Below are positions 10,803-60,913 of a stretch of DNA of 64,000 nt, one piece after another; positions within the stretch are counted from its first letter, which is position 1, and each line of letters opens with the position of its first letter. The stretch spans positions 11,566 through 75,565 of the forward strand of contig CAKOXX010000001.1 of the NCBI GenBank assembly GCA_934130405.1. The letters are read 5' to 3'. Below the pieces are notes generated by a model. It was given only the letters and a program-made list of their open reading frames with translations, was not told where the DNA came from and made no database searches. This DNA is from an uncultured Bacilli bacterium (GTDB lineage: Bacteria > Bacillota_I > Bacilli_A > RF39 > UBA660). The translations under genes and the position numbers were made by a program.

Positions 10803-11969
10803 ATTCAAAAATTCCATTAAACTTGATCCAATCTCTGGAGTATCTAAGTCAAAATTATCAGCGATAGTTGCACCGATACAAGCAAAAGTTTCTTGAGGTT
10901 CTAAAAGATGAGGCGTTTTAAAATTACGACAATATAATATTACAGGAACATTCTCTCTAGTATGATCATTTCCCTTAAAAGTTGGATCATTACCATGATC
11001 AGCTGTTATAATTAATAAATCATCCATTTCTAGTTTATTAAGTAATAAAGGAATTTCCACATCTAAATCCTCTATCGCCTTACCATATCCTTCTACATCA
11101 CGAACATGTCCATACAAATTATCAAAATCTGATAGATTTACTATGCAAAGACCAGTAAAGCTTTTATCCATTATATTAGCAAATTTTGTTAGTGCTTCTT
11201 GATTATTGGAAGCCTTTAATACTTTGTTAATTCCTTGCTCTGCAAAGATATCATTGACTTTACCAATACCAATTACGTTATAACCATTATCATTCAAGTC
11301 ATCTAATATAGTTCGTTTTGGAGGTCTGATAGAGTAATCTTTTCTTCCAGCATTATTTAATTTGAATTTACCATTTTTACCGGTAAATGGTCTAGCAATA
11401 ACTCTTGATACTAAGAAATCTTCACGCATAGTTAATTCTCTTACTTTTTCACAATAAGAATATAATAATTCAGCCGAAATAATATCTTCATGTGCTGCTA
11501 TTTGTAAGTCAGAATCAGCAGATGTATAAACAATCAAAGAACCATAGTTTAATTGTCTTTCTCCTAACTCATTAATAATACTATTATCATGACTACACTT
11601 ATTACCAATGACACGTCTACCTGTTACTCTTTCAATCTCATCAATTAATTCAATAGGAAAACCATTTTCATTAAAAGTTTTAAAAGGCATATTTGATGTT
11701 ATACCAATCATTTCATAATGTCCAGATAAACTGTCTTTTCCAACATTATTTGGTTGAGCGATAGTGTAATAAGCATCATTAGTTTCTTTATCTTCAAGGG
11801 TTAAAGTATCAAAAAAACCAATTTTTGCAAGATTTGGAATAAATAAATCATAATTATCTTTGATGTGCCCTAAAGTATTACAGCCATTATCATCATAATT
11901 ACTAGCGTCCTTTGCTTCCCCTACTCCTAACGAGTCTAAAATCATTAAAAATACTCTTTTAAATTTCAT
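10800..11969 (-). CDS. deoB: Phosphopentomutase
   Basis: MKFKRVFLMILDSLGVGE... and ITADHGNDP are typical of DeoB. The start is placed at the MKFKRV methionine (11969), just after the xerD stop. Confidence 0.9.
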   Translation of the reverse strand: MKFKRVFLMILDSLGVGEAKDASNYDDNGCNTLGHIKDNYDLFIPNLAKIGFFDTLTLEDKETNDAYYTIAQPNNVGKDSLSGHYEMIGITSNMPFKTFNENGFPIELIDEIERVTGRRVIGNKCSHDNSIINELGERQLNYGSLIVYTSADSDLQIAAHEDIISAELLYSYCEKVRELTMREDFLVSRVIARPFTGKNGKFKLNNAGRKDYSIRPPKRTILDDLNDNGYNVIGIGKVNDIFAEQGINKVLKASNNQEALTKFANIMDKSFTGLCIVNLSDFDNLYGHVRDVEGYGKAIEDLDVEIPLLLNKLEMDDLLIITADHGNDPTFKGNDHTRENVPVILYCRNFKTPHLLEPQETFACIGATIADNFDLDTPEIGSSLMEFLN

Positions 11970-36934: not shown

Positions 36935-38680
36935 CTAATCTCTTACTTTAATATGAACTTCTCTTAACTGTTCTTCTGTAACATTACTTGGTGCATTCAT
37001 TAAAATATCACTTCCAGAAGCACTCATTGGGAAAGCAATTGTTTCTCTAATTGAATCTTCATCTAAAAGCATCATTAGAATACGATCAAGTCCAGGAGCC
37101 ATACCAGCATGAGGTGGAGCACCATATTGAAAGGCCTCATATAAAGCTTTAAATCTTTTCTTGATTTCATCTTCTTCATAACCTGCAATAGCAAAAACTT
37201 TCTTCATAATTTCTAAGTCATGATTTCTAACAGCACCACTAGATAGTTCAACACCATTACAGACAAAATCAAATTGATAAGCTAAAATATCCTCTATCTT
37301 TTGATCAAGTGCTTCCATTCCACCTTTCGGCATACTAAATGGATTATGCATAAAAGTATATTTTTCTGCTTCTTCATCCCACTCAAACATTGGAAAATCA
37401 TGAATAATAGCAAAAACATATTTATTAGGATCCATAAGATTTAACTTTCTACCAAGTTCCATTCTAATAGAACCGGCTAATTCCAAGGATTTCTTTCTAT
37501 CAGCTATAAAGAATAAAACATCATCTTTTTGTAACCCAGCTTTAAGAATTAAAGCTTCACGTTCATCTTCTGTTAAAAACTTATCAATTGGACCAGCAAA
37601 AGATAAATCCTCATTTACTTTCAAATAACCAATTCCAGGCATTCCAATACTCTTAGCATAATCAACTACTTCATTAAACCAAGAATTACTCTTACTAGCT
37701 AAATTTTCAACCTTTATTCCTTTAACAGGTACTCCTCTAAAAGGACGAAACTCAGTTTCTTCAAACTCTTCCGTTAAATCAATTATTATTAAAGGGTTTC
37801 TTAAGTCTGGTTTATCAGAACCATACTTTTCCATAGCATCTTTATAGGTTAATCTAATAAATGGTGGTTCTGATATATCTTTATCTTTAGAAAATTTCTT
37901 AAATGTCTCATAGAAAACTTTCTCACCCATTTGTAAGACATCCTCCTCAGTAGCAAAAGCCATTTCAAAGTCTAATTGATAAAACTCACCATAAACACGG
38001 TCACTTCTAGCATCTTCATCACGGAAACATGGAGCTATTTGATAGTATTTATCAAAACCAGCACACATTAATAATTGTTTAAATTGTTGAGGAGCTTGGG
38101 GTAAGGCATAAAACTTTCCTTTATATTTTCTACTAGGTACTAGAAAGTCTCTAGCACCTTCTGGAGAAGATGAAGTTAAAATAGGAGTTTGTAGTTCAAT
38201 AAAATCGTCTTCTTCCATTAAGTTTCTTAAAAAGTGAATTACTTTATTACGGAAAAGAATAGATGATTTAACTTTCGGATTTCTTAAGTCTAAGTAACGA
38301 TATTTAAGTCTTACATCTTCTGCCACTTCTTTACTAGTCATTATTTCAAAAGGTAAAACATTCTTACTTTTACCAAGTATTTCTATTGAACTAACTAATA
38401 ACTCAATAGTACCTGTTTCAATTCGGTCATTATAATCATCTTCATCTCTTTTACGAACAATTCCTTTAACAGTAACAGATGACTCTCTTGTTAAATCATC
38501 AAACATCTTATCATCATTACTAACTAATTGTAGTGTTCCATAAAAGTCTCTTAAATCAACAAAGATTACTCCACCATGATCTCTTATATTTTCAATGAAC
38601 CCTACTACCACTACTTCTTTATCTATATCTTTTTCTCTTAAGCTACCAGCATAGCAATCACGATATTTATTTTTAATCAT
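36935..38680 (-). CDS. aspS: Aspartate--tRNA ligase (probably non-discriminating, from context)
   Basis: 581 aa with class IIb motifs (FRDED, GLDR). It is the last gene of the gatCAB operon. Confidence 0.9.
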   Translation of the reverse strand: MIKNKYRDCYAGSLREKDIDKEVVVVGFIENIRDHGGVIFVDLRDFYGTLQLVSNDDKMFDDLTRESSVTVKGIVRKRDEDDYNDRIETGTIELLVSSIEILGKSKNVLPFEIMTSKEVAEDVRLKYRYLDLRNPKVKSSILFRNKVIHFLRNLMEEDDFIELQTPILTSSSPEGARDFLVPSRKYKGKFYALPQAPQQFKQLLMCAGFDKYYQIAPCFRDEDARSDRVYGEFYQLDFEMAFATEEDVLQMGEKVFYETFKKFSKDKDISEPPFIRLTYKDAMEKYGSDKPDLRNPLIIIDLTEEFEETEFRPFRGVPVKGIKVENLASKSNSWFNEVVDYAKSIGMPGIGYLKVNEDLSFAGPIDKFLTEDEREALILKAGLQKDDVLFFIADRKKSLELAGSIRMELGRKLNLMDPNKYVFAIIHDFPMFEWDEEAEKYTFMHNPFSMPKGGMEALDQKIEDILAYQFDFVCNGVELSSGAVRNHDLEIMKKVFAIAGYEEDEIKKRFKALYEAFQYGAPPHAGMAPGLDRILMMLLDEDSIRETIAFPMSASGSDILMNAPSNVTEEQLREVHIKVRD

Positions 38681-40109
38681 TTTTCTTCATCCTCTCTAAT
38701 TCTTCTTTAATTAATTCTCTAGTAAGGTTAGGATTAGCTTGTCTTTTAGTAGCTACCATTACTTTTCCCATAAAGAAATTAATTACTGACATATTATCTT
38801 CTTTAATATATTGTTCAACTTGTAAATTATACTTAGTAAATTCATCTTTTATATATTTAACTAGTTCTTCTTTATCATTAATTTGCGATAAGTTTTCTTT
38901 CTCAATTAATTTAACTGGATCTATCTTCTCTTCGATTGCTTTATAAAGTATTTTCTTAGCATGATCTAGCGACAATTTATCAGCACTTACTAAGTTTATT
39001 AAACTACTTAACATTGAAGGAGTAATATAAAACTCATCTAAAGTTATTTCTAATTTATTTAAGGTTGATAAAATACTAGTTGTTACAAAGTTAACTACTA
39101 AAGATATATCTTTGACATTCTTAACTACTTCTTCAAAGTAATCAGCTAATTTACGATTTTTAGCAATAACACTAGCGTCATAATAATCTAGTCCTAAATC
39201 ATTTTGATAAGTCATTATTCTATCTAATTTTAAGACTGGAATTGACTCTTTCAATTCTTGTTTCTTTGCATCTGTTATTTTAACAGGCGGTAAATTAGCA
39301 TCAACAAAGTATTTATAATCAATAGCATCAACTTTCTCTCGCATTGAGTGTGTTTTTCCCATTTCATCTATACGTCTTGTCTCTTGAATTATTTTTTCAC
39401 CATTTGCTAAGGCTTCACTTTGTCTTTTAATTTCGTATTCAATCGCTTGTTTAACACTACTAAAGGAGTTAATATTCTTCATTTCTACTTTAGTACCTAG
39501 CCTGTCACTACCTTTTTCTTTTAAAGAAATGTTTACATCACAGCGCATTTGTCCTTTATCTGTCTTAGCTTCACTCACCCCAAGATATAAAAATACATCT
39601 TTTAAATCTTCTAAGAATGTAACTGCTTCTAGACTACTAGTAAGACAAGGCTCTGTTACTATTTCAATCAAAGGAACACCACTACGGTTATAATCTATTA
39701 ATGAATAATTCTTATCATGCTCTAAACTAGCCGTATCTTCTTCTAGATGTAACTGATGAATTAGTATCCTTTTAACTTTTCCCTCTACCATAATATCAAG
39801 ATAACCATTTCTTCCCATTGGTTTGGTAACTTGCGTTAATTGATATCCTTTAGGAAGGTCAGGATAAAAATAGTTTTTACGATCAAACATTATAACATCA
39901 GGGTTTTCACAGTGAAGAGCCATGGCGGTTCGTAAAGCATTATAACAAGCTTTTTCATTAACAACTGGTAAAATTCCTGGAAGTCCTAAATCAACAGGTG
40001 AAACATGAATATTAGGAATTTTAGTGTAACTATTCTCACTACTAGAGAAGTTCTTAGAATTTGTTTCTAACTCACAATGTACTTCTAGTCCAATAACAAC
40101 ATCATACAT
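38673..40109 (-). CDS. gatB: Asp/Glu-tRNA amidotransferase subunit B
   Basis: VIGLEVHCEL... N-terminus; 478 aa. Confidence 0.95.
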   Translation of the reverse strand: MYDVVIGLEVHCELETNSKNFSSSENSYTKIPNIHVSPVDLGLPGILPVVNEKACYNALRTAMALHCENPDVIMFDRKNYFYPDLPKGYQLTQVTKPMGRNGYLDIMVEGKVKRILIHQLHLEEDTASLEHDKNYSLIDYNRSGVPLIEIVTEPCLTSSLEAVTFLEDLKDVFLYLGVSEAKTDKGQMRCDVNISLKEKGSDRLGTKVEMKNINSFSSVKQAIEYEIKRQSEALANGEKIIQETRRIDEMGKTHSMREKVDAIDYKYFVDANLPPVKITDAKKQELKESIPVLKLDRIMTYQNDLGLDYYDASVIAKNRKLADYFEEVVKNVKDISLVVNFVTTSILSTLNKLEITLDEFYITPSMLSSLINLVSADKLSLDHAKKILYKAIEEKIDPVKLIEKENLSQINDKEELVKYIKDEFTKYNLQVEQYIKEDNMSVINFFMGKVMVATKRQANPNLTRELIKEELERMKKND

Positions 40110-41560
40110 TATTCTTCACCTCCAATTTGCCCTTTAAGCCCTGTTAATTTTTCTATTTCATTAGCAATATTTAATACTTTCTTGTCTTCTTTTATACCAC
40201 TAGTAATATTAATACCAATCGGACAATCACTGACAAAACCAGATGGAATAGTAATTGATGGAAAACCACCAAAGTTTCCTAAAGCCATATGATTTTCTAG
40301 TAATAAATATTTATCACTTAATTTATCGGTAGCATCAGAAAACTTTGGAGCAGCTCCACCACTACAAGGTAAGATAAGACCATCATAAGTAGTGAATAAT
40401 TCTGTTAATTTTTCTACTAACAGTCTTCTAACACGACAAGCATTTAGATAAAGTTTTTCTTGATTTTCTTTTTGTAAAATATAACTTCCTAATACAAAAC
40501 GACGTTTAATAAGTTCTGAGAAGCCTTCTGTTCTAGTAGCAATTATTAAGGAATTAACGTCATCTTTATTAACTCTATTTCCAAAAGCTATACCAGTTAA
40601 GTTAGAATTATTACTAGTAGCTTCCGCACAAGAGATGGTCATATAAGTTGGATATATCGCTTCTAATAAGGCTTTATCAATTGATACTTCAACAACTTCT
40701 ACTCCTCTAGTTTTTAATCTTTCTAATAAAGAATAAAAATTATCTAAAACTTCCATTAGTTCTTTATCATCAGTATCATATAAGCTTCGATCAACTATTT
40801 CTTTAATATAGAATAGTTTTTTACCAGCAAGTGGTTCATCAATATTTTCTAATAAATCACTATCATCTTGATAAGTTGTCATATCATGAATGTCATAACC
40901 TTTAATAGTGTTAATAACAGTTGCTACATCTTTAACACTTCTTGCAAAACAACCAACATGGTCAAGACTTGATGCAAAAGCAAATAAACCATAACGTGAT
41001 ACCAAACCATAAGTCGGTTTAAAACCAACAACGCCACCGAAAGCAGCTGGCTTTCTAATAGAGTCCCCCGTATCGCTTCCAAGTGCAAAAGGAACTATTC
41101 CTAAAGATACAGCAGCAGCACTTCCAGCACTAGAACCACCGATTTCTCTTGTTACGTCATAAGGATTTCTAACAATACCAGTATGTCCAGTAGTACCAGT
41201 TCCTCCCATCGCTAATTCATCAAGGACTGTTTTCCCAACTAAGACTGCTCCAGCATTTTTTAATTTTTTATAAACGGTTGCATCATAAACTGGAACATAG
41301 TTCTTTAAGATGTTACTAGAAGCAGTTGTTAAGATATTGCTAGTAGAAATATTATCTTTCAAAGCATATGGTATTCCTGCTAACGGACTAGTTCTTTTCT
41401 TTATCTTGCATTTATCACAGATAGTAACAAAAGAATTATAAGTAGCTTGATATTTATGGGCAAGTTGATTTGCTTCATTAAATAACTCCTCACTAGTAAC
41501 ATTTCCATTATCAAGTTCATATCTTAAATCGCTAATTAAACTTTTTCTATAATTCATCAC
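40109..41560 (-). CDS. gatA: Asp/Glu-tRNA amidotransferase subunit A
   Basis: Amidase signature GGSSAGSAAAV; 483 aa. Confidence 0.95.
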   Translation of the reverse strand: MMNYRKSLISDLRYELDNGNVTSEELFNEANQLAHKYQATYNSFVTICDKCKIKKRTSPLAGIPYALKDNISTSNILTTASSNILKNYVPVYDATVYKKLKNAGAVLVGKTVLDELAMGGTGTTGHTGIVRNPYDVTREIGGSSAGSAAAVSLGIVPFALGSDTGDSIRKPAAFGGVVGFKPTYGLVSRYGLFAFASSLDHVGCFARSVKDVATVINTIKGYDIHDMTTYQDDSDLLENIDEPLAGKKLFYIKEIVDRSLYDTDDKELMEVLDNFYSLLERLKTRGVEVVEVSIDKALLEAIYPTYMTISCAEATSNNSNLTGIAFGNRVNKDDVNSLIIATRTEGFSELIKRRFVLGSYILQKENQEKLYLNACRVRRLLVEKLTELFTTYDGLILPCSGGAAPKFSDATDKLSDKYLLLENHMALGNFGGFPSITIPSGFVSDCPIGINITSGIKEDKKVLNIANEIEKLTGLKGQIGGEE

Positions 41561-41855
41561 TATCCACCACCCTTGGTACTTTTACTTGATCTCTTACTTG
41601 ATGATCTGTATTAGCTAATACCTCACTGACAGAAAGCATTTCCATTTCATTTACTTCGTCATTTCTTAATTTTGCTTCGTTTGAAATGTACGGATAAAAT
41701 AATGGTTCTATCTCTTTAATGTTAGGTATATTTTCAATTAATTCCATCTGTTTAAGAATTGTTGCAAATTCATCTTGCAATGTTTCATATTCATTATCAT
41801 CCATATCAAACATTAGCTTTCTAGCATAATCTTTTAACATTTCTTTAGTTATCAC
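41547..41855 (-). CDS. gatC: Asp/Glu-tRNA amidotransferase subunit C
   Basis: A GTG start at 41855 (AAAGGA 8 nt upstream) gives (M)ITKEMLKDYARKL..., a typical GatC N-terminus of about 102 aa. The upstream part of the tracked ORF is the T-box leader. Confidence 0.8.
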   Translation of the reverse strand: MITKEMLKDYARKLMFDMDDNEYETLQDEFATILKQMELIENIPNIKEIEPLFYPYISNEAKLRNDEVNEMEMLSVSEVLANTDHQVRDQVKVPRVVDSDEL

Positions 41856-41877
41856 TTTATCAGTCCTTTCTTTTTTG

Positions 41878-42108
41878 AAAACGAAAAAGACTCTAAATCC
41901 CAGTAAAGGGACGAGTCTTTTACCCGCGGTACCACCCAATTTATTATCGGTTAGATAATCGCTTATCTTGTTAACGGGAACTACCCGGCTTAGTCTACTT
42001 TGTTCTTTAAGCACTCCGAAGTGTTATTCGTAAATACTTTATCTTAACTGTTTTCACCAACCACAGCTTCTCTTATAAGTAAAGTATTCCTACTCGTCTT
42101 CATCAACG
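41878..42108 (-). promoter_or_regulatory. T-box riboswitch leader, probable Asn (AAC) specifier
   Basis: On the minus strand: Stem I with GA/K-turn (TGATGA), AGTA, AGAGA and GGTGAAA elements. Specifier loop is ...CGAAT-AAC-A-CTTCGG (codon at 42025..42023). T-box sequence AATTGGGTGGTACCGCGGG lies at 41942..41924. Terminator is AAAGACTC...GAGTCTTTTTCGTTTTC. Confidence 0.85.
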
Positions 42109-42223
42109 TTTTCTAATAAATTTTACAATGATATTTTATAATTTGTCAATTATTTATATAAATTTTTTGAAAAATTTATTATTTTAGTTTTTACAATTTG
42201 TAGCTAATTATACATGTCATATG

Positions 42224-42484
42224 TTAGTTTTTATTATTAGAAATTTCTTCTAGTTCAATAATAGAAAGTCCTGTATACGTAGAAATTTTATCTAGACTTT
42301 CATTGTTACTTAACATCAGCTTAGCTATTTCTAGTTTTGTTTCTGTTTTTCCAATAATAACACCATTATCAACGCCTTCTGAATAAGCAGAATTTCGACA
42401 TTTTTCTTCTACCTTCTCAGCGTTATACCAAGCATTAAATTCATCATTTAGTTTCAATTTCTCAATCTCATCCATTATGACCAA
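42224..42484 (-). pseudogene. Stand-alone duplicate of the C-terminal ~85 aa of the upstream Rpn-like gene
   Basis: VIMDEIEKLKLNDEFNAWYNAEKVEEKCRNSAYSEG ... ELEEISNNKN matches residues ~190-283 of the 283-aa protein. Confidence 0.5.
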
Positions 42485-42511
42485 TCCTTTCTTGCTTTAT
42501 TTTTAATATCT

Positions 42512-43363
42512 TTAATTTTTATTGTTAGAAATCTCTTCTAGTTCATTAAGAGTAAGTCCAGTTGCATTTATAATTGTATCCTTGTCTATATTCAATGTTA
42601 GTAAATTCTTAACTATTTCTAACTGTTTATGCTTTTCTCCAATAGTAACACCATTATCAGCGCCTTTTGTATAGCCTTCTGAATAGCCCTCAGAATAAGC
42701 AGAATTTCGACATTTCTCTTCCACTTTCTCAGCATTATACCAAGCATTAAATTCATCATTAAGTTTCAATTTCTCAATCTCATCCATTATAACCAGTCCT
42801 TTCTTACTATTACCAGTTATCTTCTTTAACTCCTCATCAGTTTGTGCTGTTAACATTGATAATAGCATTTCGTCTTCGTTAGCTCCAGTATAACAAATGT
42901 CTTTGTAATTTACTAGGTATACATCATAAATTTTGATACCATTTTTTACTAAATTATATTTTCTATTCATTAATTCATACTCTAAAACGGTATCCTCATG
43001 CTCAAACTTATCATTATTTAAACTAATTTGAATTACTTCTTTGGTAGTATATTTTTCACCTTGTTCTAATCTGCTACCGGCTAGACGAAAAGCATAAGTA
43101 AGATTCTTTACTGTCGTATAATTCTCCATCGATTTATTGATTTCAACATTAACAATAATATCTCCTTCTTCTAGTAATAAGTCTAGACGATAATCTTTTC
43201 TTTTGTTACCGCTATTTAACTCATTATCAATAATCTTATAATTAGATAAATCAATCCCAATTATATGACTAAATAACTCAAGATAGATATTTCTTGTCCT
43301 TTCTTCTTTCATGAGATATTTCATAGTTGTATCTGATAAGATACTAATAAAATTATTATTCAT
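42512..43363 (-). CDS. Rpn-family / PD-(D/E)XK nuclease-family transposase-like protein
   Basis: N-terminal pattern ...KYLM...DYRLDLLLEEGDIIVNVEINK resembles PDDEXK_2 'putative transposase' proteins. Confidence 0.6.
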   Translation of the reverse strand: MNNNFISILSDTTMKYLMKEERTRNIYLELFSHIIGIDLSNYKIIDNELNSGNKRKDYRLDLLLEEGDIIVNVEINKSMENYTTVKNLTYAFRLAGSRLEQGEKYTTKEVIQISLNNDKFEHEDTVLEYELMNRKYNLVKNGIKIYDVYLVNYKDICYTGANEDEMLLSMLTAQTDEELKKITGNSKKGLVIMDEIEKLKLNDEFNAWYNAEKVEEKCRNSAYSEGYSEGYTKGADNGVTIGEKHKQLEIVKNLLTLNIDKDTIINATGLTLNELEEISNNKN

Positions 43364-43580: not shown

Positions 43581-44756
43581 TCAAGAAATATCAATTACAT
43601 CATAATAACTAGTCTTACCAGTATAGTTTACATCACTAATAGGAGTTTTAACTCCACTTTCACTATATTCTATATAATCAATTAAATGCTTATCACACCA
43701 CTCTTTACTTGGTTCATTACCTTCTCCAAACATTAAAGTTAAATCTATAATCATATAATCTTTAAAAGTAAACTCTGCCCAATCATATGATTCTATGTAA
43801 AAATGGTCATTTTCACTATTAGAAACGACAATTCCAGTATATATTCCTGTTGCATTAGGACTATAAATGAATTGAGTTTTTGGCCAATATTCTATTCCGT
43901 CTATTACTGTTTTGTGTGCAAATTCAAGTATTTTTTCCAAATTATGTCCCAACTTTTCAACTATAGATAATATATTAACATTATAATAATAATTGTGCCC
44001 AACACTTTTCATACTAGAAGCTGTCATCGCTATAGAATTACCCAAATAAGTAAGTCCATCAGTTGATAAAGTATAAGAGTCATCAGAATTCACTATTAAT
44101 TTTGCATATGTGCCTTTCCTAACAACTGCTATATTATTTTTTAATACATAATATTTTCTACATTCTCCATCTACGTAATAATTTCCTCCTGCATCTTGAC
44201 ACTTTTTATTTAAACTTTCTTCATTAGTTGATGCTCCTTCTATTCTAAGTTTTGCTTTAAAGACTTTATTTTCTTCTTCAGCTGTCATATCGCTTGAAAA
44301 CCATAATCTTAATTTATAGTTAATAGTTTGTCCACTATTAATTATTCCACTTTCTAGTTTTTGATTTCCTGTTAATGACTTAGCAACATTATTAGAACTA
44401 TCTCTTTCCAAACTATAATGAACATATTTCTGATCAATTCTAACATCACCTTCATCTAGTGGTTGATTATCTAAATAGATTGTATATGATGATGCTACTT
44501 TACCATTATTAGTTAATTTAAATGAATAGTAATTATTTAAATTAACACCTTCACTATCTGATAATGGTCCATCTGCTGATACTGTTATCGCATTACCATC
44601 TGATTCATCTAATACAAGTGATAAACTTCCAACTTTCAGAACACTATCTTTAGTTGCAAAGAAACTAGTTTGCAAAAATGCATATGATATTCCTAAAATA
44701 ATAAATATCAATATTACTAATAATATAACTAAAAATATATTTTGTCCCTTTTTCAT
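43581..44756 (-). CDS. SipW/TasA-type signal, TasA-like N-domain protein with a unique C-terminal domain (391 aa)
   Basis: N-terminus KKGQNIFLVILLVILIFIILGISYAFLQTS...VLKVGSLSLVLDES...FKLTNNGKVAS resembles the TasA/CalY signal plus first beta-strands (GGTWAAFND...GTLDLS...FENNGSL). Confidence 0.6.
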   Translation of the reverse strand: MKKGQNIFLVILLVILIFIILGISYAFLQTSFFATKDSVLKVGSLSLVLDESDGNAITVSADGPLSDSEGVNLNNYYSFKLTNNGKVASSYTIYLDNQPLDEGDVRIDQKYVHYSLERDSSNNVAKSLTGNQKLESGIINSGQTINYKLRLWFSSDMTAEEENKVFKAKLRIEGASTNEESLNKKCQDAGGNYYVDGECRKYYVLKNNIAVVRKGTYAKLIVNSDDSYTLSTDGLTYLGNSIAMTASSMKSVGHNYYYNVNILSIVEKLGHNLEKILEFAHKTVIDGIEYWPKTQFIYSPNATGIYTGIVVSNSENDHFYIESYDWAEFTFKDYMIIDLTLMFGEGNEPSKEWCDKHLIDYIEYSESGVKTPISDVNYTGKTSYYDVIDIS

Positions 44757-44787
44757 TTTTTACCTCTTTCTAATATTCAAACAGCAC

Positions 44788-44819
44788 AAAAAAACAGAAT
44801 AAGCTTTTTCCTATTCCAT
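44788..44819 (-). terminator. Leader terminator-like hairpin 1
   Basis: Minus strand ATGGAATAGG-aaaaag-CTTATTCTGT (with G-U pairs) followed by T7, about 30 nt upstream of the gene start. Confidence 0.5.
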
Positions 44820-44850
44820 TACTTTTACACTATTAAAGAAAGCAGGTTTA

Positions 44851-44940
44851 TTACTTAATAAGTACCCCCCCCCAAGTTAATTTTAAGTTAACTTTTCTAG
44901 ACTTAAAAAGTGAGCAACTATTTTTAAAACAACTTTTCAT
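44851..44940 (-). CDS. Leader uORF 1 (29 aa) containing the G9 tract
   Basis: AGGTGA lies 6 nt before the ATG at 44940. Translation: MKSCFKNSCSLFKSRKVNLKLTWGGVLIK*. Confidence 0.5.
   Translation of the reverse strand: MKSCFKNSCSLFKSRKVNLKLTWGGVLIK
44865..44873 (-). repeat. Homopolymeric tract, C9 on plus strand (G9 in the transcript)
   Basis: Counted directly: agta-ccccccccc-aagtt. Confidence 0.95.
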
Positions 44941-45014
44941 AATTACTCACCTACTTTCTTTACTTTTATAGTTTATCACAGTTATTTTTGTATCTCAATA
45001 TATTTATTGAAATA

Positions 45015-46652
45015 CTATCCAATGGTAACAGTTCCTTTTCCTCCCAACTTATCTTCTAACCAAGCTTTAGTAGTTGCATCCTTAGTAATAATATTTATAT
45101 CTGATGCTACTAACGTAAATGTATTATCATAATTTGAAACAGATGTAAATACAGCTTTTCTTAAATCCAACCTTTTCAAACTTTTACACCAATTAAAAGT
45201 ATGAAACATATCAGTTACATTTTCTGTATTAAAACTACTAAGATTTAATTCTTGCAGATTAATATTAAAAGCAAACATATCACTCATTGTAGTAACTTTA
45301 CTTGTATCAAAACTACTTAAATCTAATTCAGTTAAAGAACCATAACTAGAAGTACCAAGATTTGTATCCCACATATTAAACATTGATGACATATCTGTTA
45401 CTTTTGATGTATCAAAACTAGATAAATTGATTGAGAACAATTTTTTACAATTACAAAACATCCCACCCATATTAGTTACATTACTAGTATTAAAATTACT
45501 CAAGTCTAGTGTTGTTAAATTCTTATCTCCGTTAAACATATGAAACATATCTGTTACTTTTGAAGTATTAAGATTGTCAATATTTAATGTCTGTAAACTC
45601 GTATTGTATGCAAACATATCTCGCATTATTGTCACGTTTGAGGTATCAAAACTACTTAAGTCTAATAAAGTTAAGCTACCAGTACTAGCAGCATCATCCG
45701 TTTTATTCCACATATTAAACATTCCATACATATTTGTAACTTTAGACGTATCAAAGTTACTTAAATCGATATTTAATAAACTTTTACAATTACTAAACAT
45801 TTGTGACATATCTGTAACCTGCGAGGTATTTAACAAAGTTAAATTTTCTATTGTTTTTAGTTCAGTAAAATAGTTAAATAGGTAACTAGAATTACTATTA
45901 GCAAATATTTCACCATTACTTTGGATATATAAAGTATTGGTACTATCATCGTTAGATACTATTTTACCAATAACACTATTATTATCATTTGCTGATAAGT
46001 CATAACTCTTAGTAGTGTTTTCTATATCATTTATTTTATCTTGAAATACTATCTTAGTAACTGTTTGTTTTTCTTCATCGATAAGTTTAAGAGATGATGC
46101 CATAGTATTAATATTTTGGCTAGCTTCTATTCTAAGTTTTGCTTTAAATACTTTATTTTCTTCTTCAGCTGTCATATCACTTGAAAACCATAATCTTAGT
46201 TTATAGTTGATAGTTTGTTTACTATTTATTATTCCACTTTCTAGTTTTTGCTCTCCAGTTAAAGACTTAGCAACATTATTAGAATCATCTCTTTCTAAAC
46301 TATAATGGACATATTCTTGGTCAATTCTGACATCACCTTCATCTAATGGTTGATTATCTAAATAGATTGTATATGATGATGCTACTTTTCCATTATTAGT
46401 TAATTTAAATGAATAGTAATCATTTAAATTAACACCTTCACTATCTGACAATGGTCCATCTGCTGATACTGTTATCGCATTACCATCTGACTCATCTAAT
46501 ACAAGTGCTAAACTACCTACTTTTAAAACATTATCATTACTTGCAAAGAAACTTGTTTGTAAAAATGCATATGATATTCCTAGAATAATAAATATCAAGA
46601 TTATAAGTAATATAATTAAAAATATATTTTGTTTATTAATCTTAGATTTCAT
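45015..46652 (-). CDS. TasA-like N-domain fused to BspA-type (DUF285) leucine-rich repeats (545 aa)
   Basis: The N-terminal ~180 aa are nearly identical to the 391-aa protein. The C-terminal part repeats LDLSxFDTSxVTxMxxMFxxCxxL, the DUF285/BspA LRR pattern. Confidence 0.7.
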   Translation of the reverse strand: MKSKINKQNIFLIILLIILIFIILGISYAFLQTSFFASNDNVLKVGSLALVLDESDGNAITVSADGPLSDSEGVNLNDYYSFKLTNNGKVASSYTIYLDNQPLDEGDVRIDQEYVHYSLERDDSNNVAKSLTGEQKLESGIINSKQTINYKLRLWFSSDMTAEEENKVFKAKLRIEASQNINTMASSLKLIDEEKQTVTKIVFQDKINDIENTTKSYDLSANDNNSVIGKIVSNDDSTNTLYIQSNGEIFANSNSSYLFNYFTELKTIENLTLLNTSQVTDMSQMFSNCKSLLNIDLSNFDTSKVTNMYGMFNMWNKTDDAASTGSLTLLDLSSFDTSNVTIMRDMFAYNTSLQTLNIDNLNTSKVTDMFHMFNGDKNLTTLDLSNFNTSNVTNMGGMFCNCKKLFSINLSSFDTSKVTDMSSMFNMWDTNLGTSSYGSLTELDLSSFDTSKVTTMSDMFAFNINLQELNLSSFNTENVTDMFHTFNWCKSLKRLDLRKAVFTSVSNYDNTFTLVASDINIITKDATTKAWLEDKLGGKGTVTIG

Positions 46653-48544: not shown

Positions 48545-48575
48545 AAAGACTTATTCCTTTCATTTTGGTATACAC

Positions 48576-48618
48576 AAAAAAGATAGATTTATATTATCAG
48601 TGATATTAATCTATCTTT
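48576..48618 (-). terminator. Leader terminator-like hairpin 2
   Basis: Minus strand AAAGATAGATT-(18-nt loop)-AATCTATCTTT followed by TTTTGTG. Confidence 0.5.
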
Positions 48619-48654
48619 ATTCCACGATAAAAGAAAGTAAGTCTTTTTCTTAAA

Positions 48655-48711
48655 TTAGTAAGTACCCCCCCCCCACGTTAATTTCTGGTTAACTTGAGTC
48701 AATCGATACAT
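48655..48711 (-). CDS. Leader uORF 2 (18 aa) containing the G10 tract
   Basis: AGGTGA lies 5 nt before the ATG at 48711. Translation: MYRLTQVNQKLTWGGGTY*. Confidence 0.5.
   Translation of the reverse strand: MYRLTQVNQKLTWGGGTY
48665..48674 (-). repeat. Homopolymeric tract, C10 on plus strand (G10 in the transcript)
   Basis: Counted directly: agta-cccccccccc-acgtt. Confidence 0.95.
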
Positions 48712-48794
48712 ACTAATCACCTACTTCCTATTTTTTATTATCAGTATTCTTGACATCTTAATAATATCATAATCTTTGAAATTTTACAATTAAT

Positions 48795-49226
48795 TTATCT
48801 TGATAAAGTTTCATTATAATTTTCTAAGAAAAAATAGTCTTGGTTTTTAAAGTCACAGATAAAATAATTATTATTTAAACTATTAAGTATCTTTAGAAAA
48901 AAAGAATTATAGTAATTAGTCTTTAATCTCATATAACTTCTCTTCACAATTAAAGACCCAATCTCATCATGACCTGGTTCGTTATAGTAATGCACCCCTT
49001 TTCTCTTACTATAAGGAATAGATTGATGATACTTAATAAAGATATGTTGGTCGATTTTCTCCTTATCAATCTTTTTAGTCAACTGATGAAATAAACTATA
49101 ACCATACTTAGCATTTTCTTCTCCTAAAAAATAAATTTGTTCTAATATCTGATACAGAATAGATGGCTTATCTTGATACAAACTTTTAAACTCATCCTTA
49201 ATCTCAAAAATAAAAAACTCTCTCAT
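48795..49226 (-). CDS. Hypothetical protein (weak resemblance to SirA/DUF2522)
   Basis: 143 aa. The overall pattern (FIFEIKDEF... ...FICDFKNQDYFFL) is reminiscent of Bacillus SirA, but this is only an impression. Confidence 0.35.
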   Translation of the reverse strand: MREFFIFEIKDEFKSLYQDKPSILYQILEQIYFLGEENAKYGYSLFHQLTKKIDKEKIDQHIFIKYHQSIPYSKRKGVHYYNEPGHDEIGSLIVKRSYMRLKTNYYNSFFLKILNSLNNNYFICDFKNQDYFFLENYNETLSR

Positions 49227-58623: not shown

Positions 58624-58644
58624 AAACTACCTCTTTCTACGCAC

Positions 58645-58677
58645 AAAAAACAGAATAAGATTAGATTCCTATCCTGT
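58645..58677 (-). terminator. Leader terminator-like hairpin 3
   Basis: Minus strand ACAGGATAGG-aatctaat-CTTATTCTGT (two G-U pairs) followed by TTTTTTGTG. Confidence 0.5.
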
Positions 58678-58714
58678 TTTTTTTACACTATTAAAGAAAG
58701 TAGTTTTCTCTACC

Positions 58715-58777
58715 TTATATAAGTACCCCCCCCCAAGTTAATTTCTGGTTAACTTGAGTTCCTAAGATATTTATCAT
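58715..58777 (-). CDS. Leader uORF 3 (20 aa) containing the G9 tract
   Basis: ATG at 58777. Translation: MINILGTQVNQKLTWGGVLI*. Confidence 0.5.
   Translation of the reverse strand: MINILGTQVNQKLTWGGVLI
58726..58734 (-). repeat. Homopolymeric tract, C9 on plus strand (G9 in the transcript)
   Basis: Counted directly: aagta-ccccccccc-aagtt. Confidence 0.95.
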
Positions 58778-58860
58778 ATTACCATCTACTTTCTTTTTAT
58801 TGTTCACTTAAATTTTATCATTTTTTTATCATCTATACAATATGTTTATTTTCTAAATTA

Positions 58861-60348: not shown

Positions 60349-60369
60349 AAACTACCTCTTTCTACACAC

Positions 60370-60402
60370 AAAAAACAGAATAAGATTAAATTCCTATCCT
60401 GT
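60370..60402 (-). terminator. Leader terminator-like hairpin 4
   Basis: Minus strand ACAGGATAGG-aatttaat-CTTATTCTGT followed by TTTTTTGTG. Confidence 0.5.
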
Positions 60403-60437
60403 TTTTTACACTATTAAAGAAAGTAGTTTTTTCTACC

Positions 60438-60500
60438 TTATATAAGTACCCCCCCCCAGGTTAATTTCTGGTTAACTTGAGCTTCTAAGATATTCATCAT
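60438..60500 (-). CDS. Leader uORF 4 (20 aa) containing the G9 tract
   Basis: GAGGG lies 4-7 nt before ATGATG at 60500. Translation: MMNILEAQVNQKLTWGGVLI*. Confidence 0.5.
   Translation of the reverse strand: MMNILEAQVNQKLTWGGVLI
60449..60457 (-). repeat. Homopolymeric tract, C9 on plus strand (G9 in the transcript)
   Basis: Counted directly: aagta-ccccccccc-aggtt. Confidence 0.95.
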
Positions 60501-60559
60501 ATTACCCTCTACTTTCTTTTTATTGTTCACCTAAATTTTACCAAATATCATATAAATAT

Positions 60560-60913
60560 TCAACAATATTTATTTTCTATAATATATGCTATTTCCCTTC
60601 CATTTCTGCCAATCTCAATACCGTTATTCTTCTGAATTATTCTTTGCATTTTAATATTATCAAATGAAACTGAACATATAACTGATTTATTAACTTTGGA
60701 TAATAGCAATTTAAATACAGCACTTCCATATCCCTTATTTTGATATTTTTGAGCAATAATTATAAATAGTTCATCTCTTACTTTTTTACGTATAATTGCA
60801 TAACCAATTTTAATATTGCTTAAATAACATTCATATAGTTGATCACCTTTTGATAATTCAAACTTTTGAATTAAATCATCAGTTATTTTAGTCACTTCAT
60901 TTAAACTTATCAT
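60560..60913 (-). CDS. GNAT-family N-acetyltransferase
   Basis: 117 aa with Q-x-x-G-x-G/A-like motif QNKGYGSAVFKLLL. Overlaps the upstream gene by 4 nt. Confidence 0.65.
   Translation of the reverse strand: MISLNEVTKITDDLIQKFELSKGDQLYECYLSNIKIGYAIIRKKVRDELFIIIAQKYQNKGYGSAVFKLLLSKVNKSVICSVSFDNIKMQRIIQKNNGIEIGRNGREIAYIIENKYC

Follow-up and report, generated by a model that had tools for sequence, protein, structure and literature searches.

The 64,000-nucleotide (nt) stretch analysed here, referred to below as the window, comes from an uncultured Bacilli bacterium (GTDB lineage RF39; UBA660; positions 11,566 to 75,565 of contig CAKOXX010000001.1) and carries, at about 44 kb, an intergenic leader with a run of nine G, c44, directly upstream of a gene for a 391-amino-acid (aa) protein. 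Our analysis of this leader and of its relatives suggests that it is probably a phase-variable leader-peptide transcription attenuator. A promoter lying 20-25 nt upstream would start the leader RNA, and a ribosome loading at a very strong Shine-Dalgarno (SD) sequence would translate a short upstream open reading frame (uORF) with the G tract inside it. When the DNA is replicated, slipped-strand mispairing would lengthen or shorten the tract by one G and thereby set a new frame downstream of the ...KLTWGG codons. In two of the frames the ribosome would stop 30-46 nt before a terminator-like hairpin, which would then form, ending transcription at the U-run, with the surface gene OFF or no more than basally expressed. 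A ribosome in the third frame would pass a CU-rich block and stop inside the hairpin, covering its 5' arm, and RNA polymerase would therefore read through and the gene would be ON. The predicted ON length is G8 or G11 in c44 and most subtypes, and G9 or G12 in the subtype of a sister leader, c48. We infer that the long frame corresponds to ON, that control is transcriptional, and that switching within a clone is frequent and reversible, by analogy with the pil1 and pil3 loci of Streptococcus gallolyticus.

The window holds nine runs of at least eight G, against 0.06 expected from shuffles of sequence of about 29% GC, and four leaders of this kind, all on the minus strand and each directly upstream of a gene: c44 (G tract 44865-73, G9; product of 391 aa), c48 (48665-74, G10; 619 aa), c58 (58726-34, G9; 503 aa) and c60 (60449-57, G9; 495 aa). 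Such a pattern cannot be due to chance. With G9 in c44, c58 and c60 and G10 in c48, all four copies are in a predicted OFF frame.

In c44, all of whose coordinates are given on the minus strand, a promoter-like site (TTGAGA, 17 nt, TAAACT, with the TG of an extended -10; 44970..44998) precedes SD1, the SD sequence of the uORF (AAAGAAAGTAGG, 44950..44961), which doubles as the 5' arm of a long-range helix, P1. A local hairpin, P2 (44909..44951), has as its arms GGTGAGTAATTAT (44951..44939, including the AT of the start codon) and ATAGTTGCTCACT (44921..44909, uORF codons NSCSL), with 92% of cells paired versus 34-62% in slid controls. At the observed G9 the uORF has 29 codons (MKSCFKNSCSLFKSRKVNLKLTWGGVLIK-stop; 44851..44940) and is in a short frame, the first base of its stop codon (44853..44851) lying 35 nt upstream of the terminator hairpin. 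Within it stands an invariant core, AAGTTAAC-nnn-AAATTAAC-n-T (44874..44894), encoding VNxKLT(W); in c44 it reads AAGTTAACTTAAAATTAACTT (44894..44874), and other copies differ only in the 3 nt between the two TTAAC blocks. The length-variable, frame-setting G9 homopolymer (44865..44873) comes next. In the latent long frame (G8 or G11) the uORF would have 42 codons (44811..44940; ...KLTWGGYLLSNKPAFFNSVKVME-stop) and its TAG stop (44813..44811) falls in the terminator 5' arm. On the way, this frame reads as (A)FFNS the anti-SD block CCTGCTTTCTTTAATAGTG (44828..44846), which forms the 3' arm of P1; a conserved block at 44842..44828, CTTTCTTTAATAGTG, recurs exactly at 58.7 kb and 60.4 kb and with two mismatches at 48.6 kb. 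An intrinsic-terminator-like hairpin (TGGAATAGG / CTTATTCTG, 44818..44795) with its T7 (44794..44788) occupies 44788..44818, and is followed by a second SD, SD2 (AGAAAGAGGT, 44771..44762), and the regulated gene (ATG at 44756; 391 aa; with SD2, 43581..44771). Promoter-like sites equivalent to that of c44 lie upstream of c48 (48789..48761) and c60 (60563..60535), and the gap between the U-run and the gene ATG is too small to hold a promoter. The original prediction, which had listed the SD, the KLTWGG codons, the G9 tract, the conserved block, the hairpin with T7 and the anti-SD pairing, had placed every one of these parts correctly.

The leader belongs to a family. A pattern scan of one genome per species gave 20 matches in three metagenome-assembled genomes (MAGs) of uncultured Bacilli, 15 of them in one Hadza-gut MAG. 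A second scan, of metagenomes, in which only the G tract and the sequence after it were specified, gave 25 human-gut loci, and GTTAAC-nnn-nAnTTAAC stands directly before the tract wherever upstream sequence is present (one of the 25 begins at a contig end and has none). In all, 48 non-identical copies were gathered from genomes and metagenomes of uncultured human-gut Bacilli, including loci around homologous genes, with at least 15 in one genome; 42 were analysed in full, with frame tables, and 46-48 unique copies entered the conservation alignment. The order of parts is common to the leaders: a promoter with an extended -10, a near-consensus long SD, an ATG, a variable N-terminus of 9-31 codons, the VNxKLTWGG core, a short variable spacer, CTACTTTCTTTnATnGTG, a hairpin with U5-7, the second SD and the gene. 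Searched with Rfam 15 at the gathering threshold, the whole window gave only a T-box and a tRNA match and none for the leader, and a permissive Rfam scan of 44700-45020 gave a single spurious mir-15 match (E = 3.7). An nhmmer search with the leader profile over the collected loci found no more divergent copies beyond one relative that lacks the G tract.

The evidence that carries our reading is the geometry of the three frames. The uORF ATG is in frame with TGG-GGG-GGG, with no stop between, in 41 of the 42 tabulated copies, the exception (L033) lying too near a contig end, and a strong SD upstream of it was recognised by script in most of them. This frame is kept although the N-termini fall into about 10 unrelated sequence families of 9-31 codons, for each of which agreement would be expected in 1 case out of 3 if ATG and tract were unrelated; the uORF is real. 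For each of the 42 copies we translated the three frames after the tract, folded the terminator and measured the distances. Without exception (42/42), a single frame runs on through the anti-SD block, which it reads as (T/L/A)FF, to a stop 4-22 nt within the hairpin, and the remaining frames (n = 84) stop 30-46 nt (median 37) before it. The spacer between tract and anti-SD measures 22, 25 or 28 nt where the long frame is reached at G8 or G11, and 27 or 30 nt where it is reached at G9 or G12; every indel within a class therefore adds or removes a multiple of 3 nt. The long-frame region has accumulated about 128 differences, none of which introduces a stop where about 7 were expected to, a rough figure that is inflated because subtypes were pooled by length. 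When a 30-nt ribosome footprint is masked at each stop, the terminator folds for the short frames and is abolished for the long one. The uORF with its conserved frame, the three-frame geometry, the terminator-like hairpins and the presence of both frame states at the same loci are all seen directly in silico.

As to the frame states, among the collected DNA loci 44 tracts are G9, 10 are G10 and one is G8, while public assemblies contain G8, G9, G10, G11 and G12 states and orthologous loci differ in G length between samples. A leader from a Hadza sample (L077) is a near-identical ortholog of the c44 leader and has G8, with a 42-aa uORF (MKSCFKNSYSLFKSRKVNLKLTWGGYLLSNKPAFFNSVKIME-stop) that stops at the TAG in the terminator 5' arm; the long c44-type frame is a real allele in L077 and in the called open reading frame (ORF) P0245. 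A profile of the hypothetical long-frame peptides, taken at full length and searched against 5.8 billion predicted proteins, returned 68 small ORFs, including G8 and G11 states of leaders otherwise seen only at G9. Called ORFs of the G8 type read WGGY (P0242-45, P0248, P0249, P0255) and those of the G11 type WGGGY (P0241, P0247, P0250, P0259); short G9 forms of the same leaders (P0282 on 34 contigs, P0286 on 21) and long c48-type forms (P0252 on 16 contigs, P0258 on 20, P0277 at G12) were called as well. The c48 subtype, whose long frame requires G9 (or G12), is at G9 in 11 of 14 placements, and gene callers annotate the resulting 34-aa ORF; the c48 of the window is a G10 variant in the short frame. 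A related c44-type leader, found on 8 contigs, carries a 1-nt deletion just before the tract and is long at G9. The homologous leader without a G tract, which belongs to another species (L045-L053) and lies about 270 nt upstream of a 501-aa gene, likewise exists as two alleles across samples. What separates them is a 2-nt indel within a run of A (CTAAAAATC as against CTAAATC), together with a 1-nt indel in the SD. The uORFs of this leader have either 15 codons, stopping before the anti-SD, or 32 codons, reading ...STFF... and ending in the hairpin.

The predicted RNA folds add a second layer. A hairpin followed by U5-7 is present in all copies analysed, with three hairpin sequence families. 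SD1 (AAAGAAAGTAGG, 44961..44950) is complementary to CCTGCTTTCTTT (44846..44835) with one G.U pair, the minimum-energy fold contains a 12-14 bp helix between SD and anti-SD (free energy -52.2 kcal/mol, z = -4.5), and the SD1:anti-SD duplex is worth -11 to -19 kcal/mol in nearly all copies. This helix would shut the uORF start once the leader is complete and, together with a hairpin over SD and AUG in the c44 subtype, would probably confine uORF initiation to the nascent transcript, so that the first ribosome behind the polymerase would be the one that decides. No conserved antiterminator helix was found in the leader.

Several points weigh against this reading. All the differences in G length are between assemblies, and none comes from within one clone. 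Homopolymer lengths in short-read assemblies may be wrong, and some states, such as that of P0245, rest on a single contig, though others rest on 8-34. The subtypes that are long at G8 were at G8 in 0 of about 33 DNA loci; the ON state of these loci is rare in consensus sequences. The hairpins are rich in AU and GU pairs, with free energies of -6.5 to -15 kcal/mol, and a simple terminator scan requiring at least 3 G-C pairs picks up no leader hairpin, per-copy folding having been used in its place. Transcription and translation are often loosely coupled in Firmicutes, which would weaken antitermination by a ribosome. Finally, the frame model leaves unexplained the invariance of synonymous sites in GTTAAC/TTAAC, and a possible pairing between tract and anti-SD also falls outside it.

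A more ambitious version of the attenuator is put forward only tentatively. The leader would here be a portable, recombining cassette placed before at least 15 surface genes, each toggled independently to give combinatorial surface variation, and would have layers that the S. gallolyticus system lacks, in which the SD:anti-SD helix acts as a clamp that allows one co-transcriptional round of uORF translation, the tract serves as a cis decoy for the anti-SD, and the TTAAC motifs are bound by a factor or act as a pause or slippage enhancer.

The pairing of the tract could instead be taken as the whole of its function. In such a scheme, which we regard as unlikely and which is akin in spirit to the G-repeat of Helicobacter pylori tlpB, the tract would act as RNA, its G.U pairing with the anti-SD competing with SD1 and with the SD of the gene, so that tract length tunes the amount of free SD and control is translational. 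RNAalifold, applied to 48 copies, does propose G.U pairing of the tract and the following GUA with UAC-UUUCUUU of the anti-SD; a compensatory change is seen once (L007, GUG:CAC) and U.G variants six times, and the helix forms where SD1 is masked, as in the c48 fold; the U-to-C change of L007 also weakens P1. The helix is mostly G.U and weak, however (the consensus of the whole RNAalifold structure is -4.95 kcal/mol), and its columns are nearly all invariant, which leaves little covariation by which to judge it. The gain or loss of one G hardly alters the helix yet flips the frame, and the 42/42 geometry, the indels in multiples of 3 and the switching of the G-tract-less relative by a 2-nt indel are left unexplained. 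Pairing with the anti-SD may be a secondary role of the tract. The two schemes make different predictions for the replacement, in the long frame, of GGGGGGGGG by the synonymous GGAGGTGGA: a leader locked ON if the frame decides, and lost regulation with altered SD accessibility if the RNA tract does.

We consider it quite improbable that the long frame is fed without heritable change, by slippage of RNA polymerase or by +1 ribosomal frameshifting on G9, which would bring a fixed or physiologically tuned share of ribosomes into that frame and give graded expression from a stable genotype. The predominance of G9 (seen in 44 of 55 placements and, at one locus, in all 8 samples), the formally slippery heptamer G GGG GGG and a small hairpin (UACUU..AAGUA) after the tract in most subtypes would all fit such a process. 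A -1 shift, however, leads to another short frame in every subtype, so that a +1 shift is needed, and this without a slow A-site codon; only 1 nt separates the heptamer from the hairpin, less than classical -1 frameshifting requires; and the genomic G8, G10, G11 and G12 alleles at the same loci indicate that variation at the DNA level is real. Both processes could nonetheless coexist.

The conserved core before the tract raises a further alternative. AGTTAAC and AAATTAAC are the same in all 46 copies, down to the third positions of the Val, Asn and Leu codons, whereas the codon between the TTAAC motifs takes 10 forms and the third position of the Thr codon takes all four bases (ACT, ACC, ACG, ACA). 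The core can be read as a GUUAA/UUAAC hairpin or as a direct repeat of TTAAC with 11-nt spacing. The putative 5-bp stem never varies, the invariant C of GTTAAC lies outside it, and synonymous positions outside it are invariant too; a distant lineage keeps a direct repeat (GTTTAC-N5-GTTAC) and not an inverted one. The motif could bind a protein, make the polymerase pause or enhance slippage. To give it the leading part, with a trans-acting protein bound to the tandem (G/A)TTAAC in DNA or RNA as roadblock, antiterminator or translational repressor and the G tract secondary, seems to us to have little chance of being right. Such a protein would account for motifs that are invariant down to synonymous sites beside so variable a codon, for a spacing of one helical turn and for the direct repeat of the distant lineage. 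Against it, no candidate factor was identified, the G-tract-less relative has the two-frame behaviour despite lacking the first motif, GTTAAC occurs in the window at about its expected frequency, and the frame geometry goes unexplained, although a binding protein could be an added layer beside the frame model. GTTAAC was also considered as a restriction or methylation target and rejected on the same count (21 observed, 17.8 expected).

Promoter-spacer phase variation, the commonest known role of intergenic homopolymers, would have the tract lie between a -35 (TTAACn) and a -10 (TATAAG or TAAGTA) and set promoter strength by its length, and c58 is indeed readable as TTAACT with TATAAG 16-17 nt further on, but it is barely credible here. 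None of the four copies has a minus-strand promoter-like site across the tract, and the would-be -10 is conserved between subtypes neither in sequence nor in position. RNA initiated there would run straight into the terminator with nothing to relieve it, and good extended -10 promoters stand upstream of SD1 with the tract inside a frame-conserved ORF.

The frame-switched attenuator also bears on how the c44 copy itself is to be understood. It had been described as a divergent copy that retained only the core of the module, and the alignment of leader copies bears out the retention, the parts concerned being invariant or nearly so among the 46-48 unique copies. The conserved set comprises the SD, the VNxKLTWGG codons with GTTAAC..TTAAC, the G tract, TACTTA, CTTTCTTTnATnGTG, the hairpin with its T-run and the SD/anti-SD pairing. 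The possibility that c44 is a dead copy was checked and does not hold: it has a promoter-like site with an extended -10, an intact downstream gene of 391 aa and common close homologs. The portrait of a drifted copy with an unrelated N-terminus, on the other hand, has to be abandoned, as the N-terminus belongs to a subfamily formed by c44, L034, L018, L024 and L008. Its members have in common a (C/Y)SLF motif, whose codons are the 3' arm of a 13-bp hairpin covering GGUGAGUAAUUAU, that is, the SD flank and the start of the AUG, and two of the pairs show compensatory changes among the 5 members. The putative inverted repeat next to the tract, said to differ in c44, never varies, so that its pairing cannot be judged by covariation; the core of c44 differs from that of other copies only in the 3 nt between the TTAAC blocks. 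Selection on the core had been read from its retention; the hidden third frame and the polymorphism in G length, because of which the parts are kept together, had been overlooked.

The c44 leader is, moreover, composite. Its 3' half (the 22-nt spacer and the GGAAUAGG hairpin) occurs with other 5' halves in L009, L028, L029 and L041, and in L009 it stands before the same gene as in c44 with a c48-type 5' half; recombination at the conserved core has therefore made mosaics of the leaders. Clustering of the 5' and 3' halves was done at 70% identity, which is too permissive in AT-rich DNA, and was used for mosaicism only. In one related species the ortholog of the c44 gene lacks a leader of its own and lies directly after a 620-aa gene, and in another genus an ortholog with 38% identity has a plain promoter and no leader.

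Some members of the family depart from the common form. In L013, at about position 1057 of the plus strand, TTAACCCC-G9 replaces TTAACnT-G9 and the Trp codon is lost (..ELTPGG..), the downstream parts being normal, and in L078-L082 the T is likewise absent (KLTGGG); the Trp residue is therefore not essential. A distant lineage (L083, 2415-2660; L085, 190-360) has a G8 leader (MRKLCLQYVTWGGQFYNKLSNKTTFFHSVRRIE-stop) with the same CTACTTTCTTTCATAGTG block and a terminator, located upstream of genes with faint DUF6273 matches and with PBP, FtsA, SpoIIIAH and Germane-domain genes among its neighbours, and the leader family therefore reaches beyond the sampled clade. The metagenome contigs L006, L021, L023 (14307), L031 (9571), L061, L063 and L069 begin or break off exactly at the core or the G tract, as would be expected for a repeat of about 45 nt with at least 15 copies per genome and for a homopolymer; assemblies therefore under-report both the leaders and their tract lengths.

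The sister leaders of the window, also on the minus strand, are organised in the same way, each in its short frame. The c48 leader (48545..48789) has its promoter, a uORF at 48711..48655 (MYRLTQVNQKLTWGGGTY-stop) and G10 at 48665..48674; c58 (58624..58835) has its uORF at 58777..58715 and G9 at 58726..58734; and c60 (60349..60563) has its uORF at 60500..60438 and G9 at 60449..60457. The c48-type promoter (48740-48790, minus strand) contains two copies of a direct repeat of about 18 nt (ATGTCAArnATTAyTGATA), one overlapping the -35/-10 spacer and the other just downstream of the -10, which recurs in L001, L007, L009, L014-L017, L045-L053 and L064-L069 and may be an operator for some regulator. 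Leaders with this type of promoter are the ones that mostly occur in the long (predicted ON) frame. A SirA-like ORF (48795-49226, minus strand; sporulation inhibitor of replication, Pfam E = 1.7e-10) directly precedes the c48 promoter, a hint that the host is, or descends from, a spore-former.

The products of the regulated genes all have a K/R-rich start, a hydrophobic helix and a G-x-S-Y-A-(L/F/A) motif, and are secreted or surface proteins, one of them a DUF285/PARCEL repeat protein. The 391-aa protein has an N-terminal K/R-rich segment, a transmembrane helix, a signal-like LGISYAF motif and two predicted beta-sandwich domains. Neither it nor the 619-aa protein has a match in Pfam or NCBIfam, in which the 545-aa protein matches DUF285/PARCEL and the 495-aa and 503-aa proteins show a weak Ig-like match. 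An AlphaFold2 model of the 391-aa protein, of moderate confidence (predicted local distance difference test 64.6), compared with Foldseek gave only generic matches to beta-sandwich or carbohydrate-binding-module-like folds (TM-score about 0.23), which does not give its identity. The 391-aa (43581-44756) and 545-aa (45015-46652) proteins, both on the minus strand, are near-identical over their N-terminal 175 or so residues, comprising the signal and the first beta-sandwich, and differ in their C-termini (of no recognised type in the former, DUF285/PARCEL repeats in the latter); because the same N-domain is fused to many C-termini in database matches, the surface proteins themselves are modular. 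At 42224-43363 (minus strand), directly downstream of the c44-regulated gene, lies an Rpn-family recombination-promoting nuclease or transposase-like ORF of 283 aa, followed by an 86-aa ORF that repeats the C-terminal part of the former almost exactly (GLVIMDEIEKLKLNDEFNAWYNAEKVEEKCRNSAYSEG), a sign of partial tandem duplication. Further on, a full-length T-box leader (41904-42115, minus strand; 135.9 bits) stands upstream of an operon whose ORFs (41547-42014, 40109-41560, 38673-40109) encode products resembling GatC, GatA and GatB.

If the attenuator reading is correct, it would point to a general solution for surface variation, evolved independently with a homopolymer and used genome-wide in common uncultured human-gut commensals, with likely relevance to the evasion of immunity (immunoglobulin A) and of phages. 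It would also supply a rule for annotation, in that an intergenic poly-G far from a start codon and outside a promoter may act as a switch through the reading frame, and the small ORFs of 29-57 aa that are called at such tracts would report the state of the switch. At about 200 nt, the leader family could also serve as a compact and tunable component of synthetic stochastic switches.

Several known systems share parts of the proposed logic. In classical attenuation, as in the trp and his leaders and the leader-peptide attenuators of resistance genes such as tet(M) and ermK, the position of the ribosome on a leader ORF decides the fate of a downstream terminator hairpin, as would be the case here. 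There, however, the position is set physiologically (by charged tRNA or antibiotic) and an alternative antiterminator hairpin is involved, whereas here it would be set genetically, by the frame. In cwpV-type regulation of Clostridioides difficile, an invertible element in the 5' leader carries a terminator in one orientation; as in our proposal, a surface protein is heritably ON or OFF through a leader terminator and not through the promoter or the coding sequence, but cwpV relies on site-specific inversion by a recombinase, while the leaders described here have no flanking inverted repeats and would involve no recombinase. The 5' untranslated region of H. pylori tlpB has a G-repeat targeted by a C/U-rich loop of the small RNA RepG, and so resembles the present leaders in placing a length-variable G homopolymer able to pair with C/U-rich RNA in an mRNA leader; its partner acts in trans, post-transcriptionally and in a graded, length-dependent manner, while here the partner is in cis and the reading frame appears to be the dominant signal.

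The closest precedent is that of S. gallolyticus pil1 and pil3, the only case we found in the literature of repeat slippage in a leader peptide coupled to a terminator; a C. jejuni Ribo-seq preprint in which uORFs and poly-G tracts are mentioned has no bearing on it. In S. gallolyticus, slippage of GCAGA repeats in a leader-peptide gene lets ribosomes block a terminator (Danne 2014, PLoS Pathog, PMC3894217). The short peptide stops 39 nt upstream of the terminator, and expression is low where this gap is 28 nt or more, while long peptides end in or after the terminator and give high pilus expression. Mutants of the start codon and of the stop codon, and others with the terminator deleted, proved that the system depends on translation and on the terminator (PMC3894217), and the leader was shown to function in a heterologous host too. 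The two systems have in common a promoter-proximal leader ORF with a slippage-prone repeat and its own SD and start codon, a hairpin between the leader ORF and genes for surface structures (an intrinsic terminator in S. gallolyticus, a terminator-like hairpin here), short frames that stop about 30-40 nt before the hairpin with long frames that stop in or after it, and several loci per genome. They differ in the repeat, which is a G8-G12 homopolymer here, changing by 1 nt per step, as opposed to 13-22 GCAGA pentamers (5 nt per step) in pil1, and in the number of long frames, one of three here and both out-of-frame states in S. gallolyticus. They also differ in that the present leader is a conserved recombining cassette, with at least 15 copies per genome, and has an SD1:anti-SD helix, a TTAAC repeat and, in one subtype, a hairpin over SD and AUG. 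The genes concerned here encode non-pilus surface proteins of uncultured gut Bacilli and are known from sequence alone, whereas pil1 is known experimentally. No homology to pil1 was detected, there being no GCAGA repeats in these leaders and the leader sequence being unrelated, and the relation would be one of mechanism and not of descent. The logic would be that of pil1, realised here in an unrelated sequence, with a homopolymer as the repeat, in a multi-copy recombining cassette that carries additional conserved RNA features.

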